Origin: a plasmid
DNA: 64,000 nt
Reading direction: 5' to 3' (one strand)
NCBI RefSeq assembly: GCF_988243305.1
Contig: NZ_OZ547138.1
Part shown: piece by piece, positions 45,001-48,000 of the stretch
How positions within the stretch are numbered: position 1 is the first letter of the stretch
How the letters are laid out: each line of letters begins with the position of its first letter
Made by a program: the position numbers

Positions 45001-48000
45001 GAGGCGTATGCGCGGGATTTATTCCTGGACTCCTTCACCTTTATTGACGGTCATGTGTTCCGTCGGTGATTTACTCCCCCGCTCCGGCGGGGGTATGGCC
45101 TGCCAGGCCGCCGGAAAACCCTGGCAGGCTTACGCCTGCCTGAAATGCAGGAGGGCCGCGCCTGCGGCGCTGCCCTTCCTGCCCGTCATGGTGTGAGGCA
45201 TTTTTCTGTTATGTCGTTTCTGTTGTTCTGATTTCCGGAGGCGGGGACACCTTCGGCTCCCGGCTGCCTGGCGGCATCCGGTCGTCAGGCCCGACTCCGA
45301 CAGGCAGCTGCTGGCGCACCCGCCAGTCTCCGCCGAACCCGCTGGCGCGGTTTCGGGCTGCCGCTACGGTCCGATGTCTGAAAAACCAGGCTTGCAGCGA
45401 CCGTTCCGGTCGCGCCGCCTCTGTCGCGCCGTGACCTGCGCTCCCTGCACACCTGACGGTGTGTAAGGAAACTGCGCCTGATGGCGCAGTTGTCTGCCCT
45501 TCCGCCGCCACCCCTGCGGCCTGTTTCCCGCTGTGGACTTTCCGGGGGCTGAAGCGGCCACAACACGTGTCAGCCGTCCAGGGGGGAGATGTACCAGCCA
45601 CAAAACTTTTTGCCGCAAGCGTCAAAAACTTTTGCGTCTGCCCCCGGACAACTGCCCCGTGCCGTGGCTGTCGCTGCCCCATCGGAAAGGTCCACTGCGG
45701 GGAGAAACCCCGAAGAAGTGGACGGCAGAAGGGGCTTTCGCCCCTCCGGGGGAGCAACCGGTCGGCCCGGCGACCTGATTCAGCAGAAGGAGACGTTTTC
45801 ATGACAGTCAGCAGCACGATTTCCGTTTTTTGCCGCGACGGGGTGTTCCGTACCGTTTACTGCCACCTGCACGGTGAGCCGACCTGGAACGGTCGCATCC
45901 TGCATACCCACTATGCCACCGGTCAGCAGGCCGAAGCCCTGGTTGAACACGGTGATATCCGTTGCCTCGGTCCCCGTTGCGACAAACCCGCCGGGCATAC
46001 GCTTCAGAACCCGGTGGACGGTGTGACGGCTTATTACGGACGTGACAGTGGTTTCCGGATGGACAGTGAGGCGCGTGAGTACCGTTCTTTCAGGGAGGCC
46101 ATCGCCACGGAAAGCACTGAAGAGGTGCGCTTCCATTATGTGTTCATCGACGGCTACTGGAAGGTGATGTACCGCACGCCGGAAGGCTGGAAGATGAAGT
46201 CGCTTGCGCTGGCACTGCGCCGCTGTCCGAAATGAAAAAAAGGCAGGGCGATAAACCCTGCCTCTCTCCGCCGGCGCTTCCCCGCCAGGAAGCCCGGCAT
46301 CTCAATCACTATCTATGGAGATTATGCCATGAGACCATCAATTATCTTCGCAACCGCCGAGTATGTAAAGCGTCTGCGTGAAGAGTGCCTGCGGGAGAAT
46401 AAACCCCTGCACCGCCATACCCGCTTCAGACGTCAGGAGCTGGCACAGGATGAGATTAACCCGGACGTCCTGGCGATGAGCGGTCATATCGCCAGACGCT
46501 GCAGTGAGCAGAAGCGGGTGCGTATCCCCGCTATGAAAGCCAGCGAATGGGGCCACCTGCTCCGCGCGCTTGAAATTGAACGGGTCTGCCACTGATTAAC
46601 CCTTGCCGTCTGCCTGTGCAGGCGGCAGGATACGTTCAGACATCTCACCAGGAGGAACCGTGAGTAAGAAGAAAAACACCACAACGCCCACGCCGCATGA
46701 TGCCGCGTTCCGGTCGTTCCTGGCGAATCCCGACGTCGCCAGAGATTTTCTGGAACTGCATCTTCCGGCGGAGTACCGGCAGTTGTGCGACCTGTCCACG
46801 CTGAAGCTGGAACCCGCCACCTTTGTAGAGCCGGACCTGCATCAGTACGCCAGCGATATCCTCTGGAGCGTGAAAACCACCGGGGGTGAAGACGGCTATG
46901 TTTATACGCTCATCGAGCACCAGAGCACCGAAAATCTGTACATGCCTTTTCGCATGTTACGTTACAGTGTGGCGGCGATGCAGAGACATCTGGAGCAGCA
47001 CAAAACGTTGCCACTGGTGATTCCGGTGCTGTTCTATCACGGTGAGCGCAGCCCGTACCCGTACAGCATGAACTGGCTGGACTGTTTTGAGAATCCGGCA
47101 CTTGCGGCTAAAATATACACAAAGCCGTTTCCGCTGGTTGATATCACTGTCGTTGATGACAATGAAATCATGAATCATCGCCGGATGGCCGCACTGACGC
47201 TGCTGATGAAGCATATCCGCCATCGTGACATGATGGAGCTGCTGGACAAACTCCCGAAGGTCATGGTGGAAATTTCAGACGAGCAGGTGCGTGTTCTGAT
47301 TCATTACATCGTTAACGCAGGGGACTCTGTATCACCGGAATTTATGCGGGCGCTGGCTGAGCGTCTGCCGCAGCATGAGGATAAACTGATGACTATCGCA
47401 GAACGTCTTGAGCAAAAAGGTCGCCAGGAGGGCAGGATGGAAGGTGCGCTTGAAAAAGCCCTGGCTATTGCGTGCCAGCTTCAGAAAATGGGGATGACGC
47501 CGGAGCAGATTAAGCAGGCTACCGGGCTTTCCGATGACGAACTGAAGAAAATCACTCACTGATGAGAGTATCACAGCCCGGCAAAATGCCGGGCTTTTTA
47601 TCCAGCAGGAGCAGAGCAAACAGTATGACGCTTGCAGAACGTCTTATACAGAAAGGTTTTGAAAAAGGCGCTCTTGAAGTGGCGCGGGAAATAGCCTGTC
47701 GGCTTCGGGATATGGGCTGGCCGCCGAAACGGATTCAGGAGGCTACCGGACTTTCCGGTGAAGAACTGAAAAAACTGTTTCCTGATGAGCAGTAGCCTGG
47801 CATTCAGCCAGGCTGTGAATCACGCTCACACATCCTCTGCCGTTTCCCCCAGTTCATTTTCCAGACGCCTGATGATATCTGCCTTACGCATCCCCTGCAT
47901 GTGAGGCAGCAGGTCACGGACTGAAAGAGCCTGGGTGGTCCTCCAGACGGTGACGTCCACCTGTTCCGCATTTTCCCAGGCGTGCCATGTTCTCTGCGTC

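Follow-up and report, generated by a model that had tools for sequence, protein, structure and literature searches.

The single-strand promoter ssi2 upstream of ygcA, a gene whose product is misnamed PndC, in the leading region of an IncI1-type plasmid

What is the role of a small plasmid gene that lies behind a long structured repeat in the DNA entering a recipient cell first? We addressed this question for a 64,000-nucleotide (nt) stretch of plasmid DNA (RefSeq assembly GCF_988243305.1, contig NZ_OZ547138.1; hereafter the window), in which an open reading frame (ORF) of 144 amino acids (aa) is preceded by an element that also precedes the ssb gene. A preliminary description of the sequence had interpreted the repeat as a "type B" single-strand promoter, and the ORF as a good candidate for a new anti-restriction or anti-defence factor. 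The element is almost certainly ssi2, and the ORF ygcA. The overall explanation, which blends these identities with a host-targeting role of the YgcA protein, is in our judgement probable on balance.

The element upstream of ssb (38906-39410) recurs at 45252-45754, as had been described. The two copies are identical in about 90% of alignment columns over about 500 nt, which is not attributable to chance, and in a repeat search the match falls into three blocks, with identities of 97%, 94%, and 79%. A third, shorter copy is located at 48279-48607. The copies were placed by BLAST using as reference the ssi sequences of plasmid ColIb-P9 (AJ238399), printed in Supplementary file 4 of PMC11541004. 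The copy in front of the ORF is most similar to ssi2 of ColIb-P9 (Table 1), and is 84.9% and 83.9% identical to ssi1 and ssi3, respectively. It diverges from its reference (87%), while the ssi1 and ssi3 copies of the window sit at 98%. The core of the window ssi2 also aligns with Frpo1 and Frpo2 of the F plasmid. Together, the ColIb-P9 matches and the Frpo alignment indicate that the element is a class 1 (Frpo/ssi) promoter, copy ssi2. The proposed single-strand promoter is therefore retained, whereas its class changes from "type B" to class 1. At its end distal to the gene, the repeat is extended by about 170 nt. This extension is missing from the ssi1 copy, and aligns partially with the flanks of the F Frpo elements.

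Table 1. Coordinates of the ssi elements, ygcA, and surrounding features in the window.
Feature	Position	Strand	Remarks
ssi2, class 1 (Frpo/ssi) single-strand DNA promoter	45421..45748	-	87.3% over 331 nt to ColIb-P9 ssi2
Repeat 5' extension, common with ssb copy (38906-39075)	45251..45420	-	97% block, outside the published 326-331-nt core
Long imperfect hairpin of the transferred strand	45496..45733	-	apex ~45616-45619; from DNA folds
ssi3, sister copy before ssb	39075..39405	-	98.5% to ColIb-P9 ssi3
ssi1, sister copy before ygfB	48279..48607	-	98.2% to ColIb-P9 ssi1
Shine-Dalgarno AAGGAG	45787..45792	+	8 nt before ATG
ygcA, presumed first gene of the ssi2 operon	45801..46235	+	144 aa, 16.5 kDa, isoelectric point 8.3
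GC-rich hairpin GGCAGGG-N7-CCCTGCC	46242..46262		just after ygcA stop; read from sequence
ygdA, 88 aa	46329..46595	+	next gene after ygcA, probably same operon
Rpn-family recombination-promoting nuclease ORF	46603..47562	+	NCBIfam TIGR01784, 184 bits against 52-bit cut-off
ssb	39472-39999		downstream of ssi3
ygfB, DUF4942 gene	48654-49505		downstream of ssi1
mobC-like ORF	49590-49931	-	
oriT, approximate position	49932..50156		between mobC-like ORF and nikA/nikB; synteny with pN11, pESBL
nikB	50501-53212		

The element is structured, as had been proposed. The transferred strand (T-strand), which is the minus strand of the window, folds in the segment 45252-45800 at -172 kcal/mol, as compared to -123 +/- 5.6 kcal/mol for shuffled sequences (z = -8.8). 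In the long hairpin of ssi2, a conserved bulge stays unpaired (GGTACATCT), and there is a further internal loop. The T-strand fold of ssi2 is 14.6 kcal/mol more stable than that of its complement, and the difference is 13-17 kcal/mol across the three window copies, as expected under selection for structure on the transferred strand. The consensus fold of ssi1, ssi2, ssi3, F Frpo1, and F Frpo2 comprises 81 pairs, 26 of which show compensatory double changes. Reading the fold by eye, and by inference only, we assign a putative -35 to the conserved TGGAC(A/G) in the 3' arm, a putative pre-melted -10 to an internal loop 18 nt further downstream, a putative UP-like function to an A/T-rich tract at the apex, and a putative transcription start to positions near 45685-45695.

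The window contains the leading region of an IncI1-type conjugative plasmid, with genes ordered as in plasmids pN11 and pESBL. The 10.7-kb part 36000-46686 is 96% identical to pESBL-EA11 (NC_018659). Among the matches listed by a megablast search of PLSDB, 1956 cover at least 80% of the query, and the listed matches are nearly all conjugative plasmids of Escherichia, Salmonella, Shigella, and Klebsiella. The ORF carries the name ygcA in the annotated IncI-gamma/K1 plasmid pN11. The order of genes in pN11, yfeB (klcA-like)-ssb-yfhA (parB-like)-psiB-psiA-ygaA-ardA-ygcA-ygdA-rpn-ygfB-yggA-nikA-nikB, is the same as in the window. In pESBL-EA11, the three ssi copies precede ssb, a 435-nt coding sequence after ardA, and a DUF4942 gene. 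The product of the 435-nt coding sequence (WP_000218858.1) is identical to YgcA in 142 of 144 residues (99% aa identity). Judging from gene order, the origin of transfer (oriT) probably lies just to the right of 49.9 kb, and the minus strand of the window is both the transferred strand and the template for all rightward leading genes. A promoter scan of 45000-46500, between ardA and ygcA, revealed no sigma-70-like site on the plus strand, as would be expected of a gene expressed only while its DNA is single-stranded.

Early expression from elements of this kind has been published. Early transient production of leading-region proteins by the F plasmid requires Frpo1 and Frpo2, and Frpo deletions abolish early expression (Couturier et al. 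2023, PMC9849209). The IncI leading region was described as three operons expressed from ssi3-1, the products of which include "PndC" (Benz & Hall 2023, PMC10104558). Family 23 of the families enriched in leading regions has 2203 members and a median ORF position of 7 from oriT (Samuel et al. 2024, PMC11541004), and both its position and its name appear to fit ygcA. Wen et al. (2025, PMC12672017) applied RNA sequencing with donor elimination to the IncI1 plasmid pESBL, and at 15 min observed an induction of up to about 500-fold for six operons of the leading region. Each induced operon lies behind a hairpin-forming intergenic segment, three of the segments are ssi1-3 ("class 1"), the start sites of the operons were confirmed by 5' rapid amplification of cDNA ends, and among plasmid genes in recipients those of the ssi-driven operons showed the strongest induction. 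The early expression suggested by the preliminary description has thus been demonstrated at the level of operons for the near-identical pESBL locus, and the proposed wiring is right in that the element is 87% identical to ColIb-P9 ssi2 and lies on the transferred strand. As the first gene after ssi2, ygcA would belong to the induced operon and hence be presumably induced itself.

The locus is nevertheless not a new lead, since the gene is among the published products of the ssi operons (PMC10104558) and corresponds to family 23 (Samuel et al. 2024). Existing catalogues already include promoter and gene alike, and measurements of the early induction of ssi operons have been published for a near-identical plasmid. 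Literature searches for the names ygcA or ydfA retrieved no publication. The elements ssi1-3 were reportedly described by Bates et al. in 1999, and the work of Masai and Arai from 1997 is said to be among the sources for the class 1 promoters (ColIb-P9 ssi1-3 and F Frpo1/Frpo2).

The 144-aa frame was confirmed, with its ATG at 45801 and the stop codon ending at 46235. The strong ribosome-binding site noted previously can be read in the sequence as AAGGAG, 8 nt ahead of the ATG. All of the 69 homologues compared (69/69) have M-x-T at residue 1, which favours the 144-aa start over a GTG-extended ORF of 258 aa beginning at 45459. The GC-rich hairpin of ssi2 is traversed by long ORFs on both strands (45209-45817, minus, 202 aa; 45459-46235, plus, 258 aa). 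Hairpin-spanning ORFs of this kind are annotated elsewhere, as a 138-aa minus-strand gene in locus L003 and as the 251-aa UniProt entry C1J8S7; they are most likely annotation artefacts, since all homologues start with M-x-T. The GC-rich hairpin following the ygcA stop codon is preceded by A7 on the plus strand, so that a minus-strand transcript would carry U7 behind it. A terminator scan did not flag this hairpin. For the minus strand it resembles a terminator, whereas ygcA would be terminated by it only weakly. Because the hairpin has no U-run on the sense strand, the ygcA transcript probably runs on into ygdA and the Rpn gene.

We propose that during mating the minus strand would enter the recipient 5' end first from oriT (~50.0 kb), bringing in ssi1, ssi2, ardA, psiBA, and ssb in this order. 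The single-stranded ssi2 would fold into an imperfect hairpin with about 110 bp per arm, and the host RNA polymerase would use the hairpin as a promoter. Rightward transcription off the incoming strand would give an mRNA for ygcA, and probably also for ygdA and the Rpn-family gene. Upon synthesis of the complementary strand, the hairpin would be lost, no conventional promoter would take over, and ygcA would be turned off. With the hairpin lost on conversion to duplex, YgcA would be made as a short burst in the new recipient. Our best guess is that YgcA acts on a component of the recipient cell during plasmid establishment, and not by DNA mimicry. In this scheme, we infer the place of ygcA at the head of the induced ssi2 operon, the exact -35 and -10, the start site, the extent of the operon, and the biochemical role of YgcA.

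The YgcA protein is widespread and conserved. An identical protein is encoded on at least 1000 public contigs, and about 1997 of the 72,556 plasmids in PLSDB carry a family member, with 94% of the carriers predicted to be conjugative. A HMMER scan of 1.84 billion cluster representatives identified 1983 relatives at E <= 1e-3, of which 257 also pass E <= 1e-10. Plasmids, integrative islands, and large phages all carry members of this family, and purifying selection on it is clear. Its median isoelectric point (pI) of 5.2 is mildly acidic, as compared to 8.3 for YgcA. The richness in Cys, His, and Trp pointed out in the preliminary description amounts to a modest enrichment (five Cys, seven His, and three Trp, 10% of residues) and is only partly noteworthy. 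The claim that YgcA matches no family is correct for Pfam, NCBIfam, and PADLOC, but not for PHROG. Pfam yielded no informative family for YgcA, for 70 relatives, or for 25 long relatives, and NCBIfam and PADLOC produced no match to YgcA. The hidden Markov models of two phage PHROG families match YgcA: PHROG 1987 with E = 5.3e-21, aligning residues 1-126 to profile positions 1-118 of 128, and PHROG 23089 with E = 4.9e-19.

An alignment of 70 full-length members with a median length of 142 aa was used to analyse conservation. The conserved motifs are M-x-T-R-S-x-I, Y-C-H-x-D-G-Y, N-G, H-Y, L-G-D-x-S-x-L, the invariant His66, Y-G-R-D-R-G-E, E-Y-x-Y-x-F, and a conserved Trp. The YgcA of the window keeps the invariant set H22, H66, R81, and D82, together with Y20, Y79, Y113, and W120. 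This set of polar and aromatic residues suggests a ligand-binding or catalytic pocket. The AlphaFold2 model calculated from the family alignment has an alpha/beta fold, a mean predicted local distance difference test score of 96.9, and a predicted template-modelling score of 0.91. Accordingly modelled, YgcA is predicted to be a soluble alpha/beta protein of about 16.5 kDa. Searches of the PDB by single sequence and by profile returned nothing under E = 0.2. All Foldseek matches in AFDB50 are "PndC" or uncharacterised proteins, and fold searches of the PDB and the AlphaFold DB gave no named structural relative and no named anti-defence protein. Among the profile, sequence, and fold matches there is no housekeeping or structural family.

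Relatives of YgcA are encoded by GAP32-like jumbo phages, KVP40-like phages, cyanobacterial T4-like phages, and Caulobacter phages, where they always lie inside long runs of small unnamed genes. The gene pnuC for a nicotinamide-mononucleotide transporter is positioned at most 5 kb from the YgcA homologue in the distantly related large phages GAP32 (L002, 5001-5720) and KVP40 (L024, 4986-5375), and in GAP32 a gene for nicotinamide-mononucleotide adenylyltransferase is also nearby. The proximity of pnuC may be a coincidence within long arrays of small genes. Two relatives with 43% and 48% identity to YgcA each adjoin genes of the ArdC type (ArdcN and MPTase-PolyVal domains), and in one case the gene array has an ArdC-CbtA fusion at its end. 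Of the 25 longer members, one is fused to a WYL_2 domain and one to a gp32-like segment that binds single-stranded DNA. These fusion cases are too sparse to interpret.

Other plasmids of the IncI complex have at the same locus an allele (P0054; L003/L005, ~5994-6405) that is 52% identical to YgcA. In bins of 100 nt, the DNA of this allele is 58, 64, 55, and 41% identical to that of the window across 45800-46199, as compared to 95-100% in the flanks. The break points coincide with the Shine-Dalgarno sequence and start codon on the left and the last nine codons on the right (45794-46208), after which identity returns to 94-99%. A replacement that is confined so precisely to one gene, with flanks that hardly differ, typically affects genes engaged in a conflict with variable partners, but does not prove such a conflict. 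P0022, considered as a third allele with "79%" identity, sits in 96-100% identical DNA and was rejected as probably a frameshifted gene call.

The gene-precise allele replacement, the ArdC neighbours, and the phage homologues form a context that would fit the anti-defence idea, and to call YgcA a candidate anti-defence factor appears a fair hypothesis. We regard a counter-defence or host-modulating role as a serious possibility, although one that falls somewhat short of being probable. A more specific version, in which YgcA would be the plasmid member of a new family of early effectors common to conjugative plasmids, ArdC-bearing islands, and large phages, and its His/His/Arg/Asp and aromatic pocket would bind or destroy a component or signalling molecule of host immunity, is speculative, and we consider its two parts jointly as rather doubtful. 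If it is true, the two sharply different IncI alleles reflect an arms race with recipient defences.

Several observations weigh against the proposed early host-targeting gene. On the side of the promoter, a simple hexamer scan, run on both strands of the five copies, detected no canonical -35/-10 pair in the ssi2 hairpin, where none reached 8/12 matches. On the side of the protein, searches with Pfam (YgcA and 70 relatives) and PADLOC gave no match to a known anti-defence, anti-restriction, or defence family, and the match of one YgcA relative to Acb3 (E = 0.05) is at the level of chance. The pI of 8.3 contrasts with 4.1-4.9 for ArdA (4.1), PsiB, and the KlcA-like protein of the window, and such a basic protein is unlikely to act by DNA mimicry in the manner of ArdA or Ocr. 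The window allele departs from the family consensus at four positions with a conservation of 90% or more (T3V, D24H, S54R, and R83S), and may represent an altered or inactive copy if the family consists of enzymes. Furthermore, the two ArdC-adjacent relatives are closely akin and may count as one observation.

In the likeliest alternative, YgcA would serve the maintenance or processing of the mobile element itself and not anti-defence, as either a small enzyme or a nucleic-acid-binding protein. It could handle single-stranded DNA, aid complementary-strand synthesis or recircularisation, or act on nucleotide or cofactor pools. The invariant His, His, Arg, and Asp with their aromatic companions resemble an active or binding site, the family occurs in large phages rich in metabolic genes and close to pnuC in KVP40 and GAP32, single members are fused to the WYL_2 or gp32-like domain, and other genes driven by ssi/Frpo elements, such as ssb, are not strictly anti-defence. 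However, the swap to a 52%-identical allele with gene precision is unusual for a housekeeping function, the searches found no sequence or fold relative with such an activity, and the fusions are single cases. We consider this explanation possible but unlikely.

It is also conceivable that ssi2 mainly provides a priming site for complementary-strand synthesis, and that ygcA is a passenger, the early expression of which is inconsequential. The original description of Frpo, as cited in PMC12672017 and PMC9849209, gave it two roles, that of a promoter and that of a source of primer RNA, and the deletion of F Frpo2 or ssb had no effect on conjugation frequency (PMC9849209). A passenger is nevertheless difficult to reconcile with the intact, identical YgcA on so many contigs and the purifying selection on its family, with a strong Shine-Dalgarno sequence at the proper distance from the start codon, or with the rank of the ssi-driven operons as the most strongly induced ones in the pESBL study. 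We hold the priming-site explanation to be improbable.

Genuine PndC is a Mok-like frame overlapping pndA, which encodes a toxin of the Hok family. That YgcA is this PndC, the Mok-like part of the pnd (Hok/Sok-type) post-segregational killing system, can practically be dismissed, as its sole support is the name "post-segregation killing protein PndC" in NCBI, UniProt, and GenBank, reused in papers, and against it stand a tblastn search with F Hok, R1 Hok, and pESBL PndA that found no credible Hok/Gef ORF in the window, including any overlapping or adjacent to ygcA; the position of the true Hok/Gef gene of pESBL (79824-79976), which is flanked by finQ and excA at a distance of 14 kb from ygcA; a comparison of YgcA with pESBL 50000-88544, including the pnd locus at 79.8 kb, in which only its own gene matched; an Rfam search of 30000-64000 at gathering score without a match, and so without a hok/sok-type RNA, and one of 45100-46700 at a relaxed threshold that gave only a sub-threshold SorX; the globular nature of YgcA, which with 144 aa and thousands of phage and bacterial relatives is not a short leader frame; and the current RefSeq annotation of the pESBL copy as "hypothetical protein". 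The name "PndC" is thus a misnomer for YgcA. It has been used as the label of a toxin-antitoxin component for family 23 in Supplementary file 3 of PMC11541004, in PMC10104558, and in bioRxiv 10.64898/2026.02.20.706986. A correction would be useful, as the label already steers the reading of plasmid deletions and of the gene content of leading regions.

The preferred reading is that of an early gene behind ssi2, the product of which may target the recipient cell. IncI1 plasmids are major carriers of extended-spectrum beta-lactamase genes in E. coli and Salmonella, and genes expressed in the first minutes after entry help to decide whether a plasmid becomes established. ygcA enters among the earliest genes, and the single-strand promoter in front of it is one of the strongest. 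As a discovery the locus is not novel; its value is that of a well-defined experimental target, encoding a very common, mis-annotated protein with no named fold relative.

The surroundings of ygcA show additional features. A candidate cis-antisense RNA of about 100 nt is located on the minus strand at 46369-46235. Its candidate promoter is the sigma-70-like TTTACA-17-GATAAT (10/12 matches, 46369->46341). The RNA would form three stem-loops (-54.6 kcal/mol, z = -6.1), end in the GC hairpin with U7, and be complementary to the ribosome-binding site and start codon (46329) of ygdA. It matches no Rfam family. As it would be templated by the plus strand, it could arise only after complementary-strand synthesis. 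Among the leading-region families of PMC11541004, ygdA falls into family 1 (YdaB/YdfB/YgdA). The Rpn-family ORF directly follows ygdA, the same as in P0054-type plasmids, and a segment of about 460 bp with ccgAII, present in pN11 and pESBL (L001, 13489-13950), is missing from the window near 46651-46686. NCBIfam searches of the window neighbours and the ArdC-linked locus L007 added only the Rpn and ParB assignments. A 300-nt repeat of a second kind occurs before the klcA-like gene (37284-37583) and before ardA (44233-44532), with 97% identity between copies. It corresponds to the "class 2" single-strand promoters of pESBL klcA and ardA described by Wen et al. (2025, PMC12672017).

Compared with known systems, ygcA is the same gene as in R64-type IncI plasmids, pESBL, and family 23, positioned between ardA and ygdA behind the same ssi2. 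It has no substantive difference from the pESBL and R64-type genes, whereas the family 23 label "PndC (Hok/Sok TA related)", where TA stands for toxin-antitoxin, is unsupported here. YgcA resembles ArdA, KlcA/ArdB, ArdC, and PsiB in being encoded in the same region and on the same strand, with the same logic of early expression from single-stranded DNA; in contrast to them, it is not acidic, and has no sequence or fold similarity to any of them. The function-less phage families PHROG 1987 and 23089 (for example, GAP32 gp348, KVP40.0229, and S-PM2 p016) have the same conserved motifs as YgcA, and some of their members are longer (239 aa) with an extra C-terminal region. Unlike the phage members, the plasmid clade has lost R4 and, in the YGRDRGE motif, R83 and E85; in the window allele, T3 and D24 are lost in addition.

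The window ssi2 differs from that of ColIb-P9 in being a mosaic. Its apex (45555-45667) is like ssi1, with 91% identity to 48417-48529, whereas the apex of ColIb-P9 ssi2 itself resembles ssi3. The mosaic apex suggests gene conversion among the three ssi copies. The window repeat also exceeds the published ssi core by about 170 nt. Otherwise, it shares with the ColIb-P9 ssi and F Frpo elements a homologous sequence on the transferred strand, a long imperfect hairpin with conserved bulges, and a position directly upstream of a gene templated by the T-strand.

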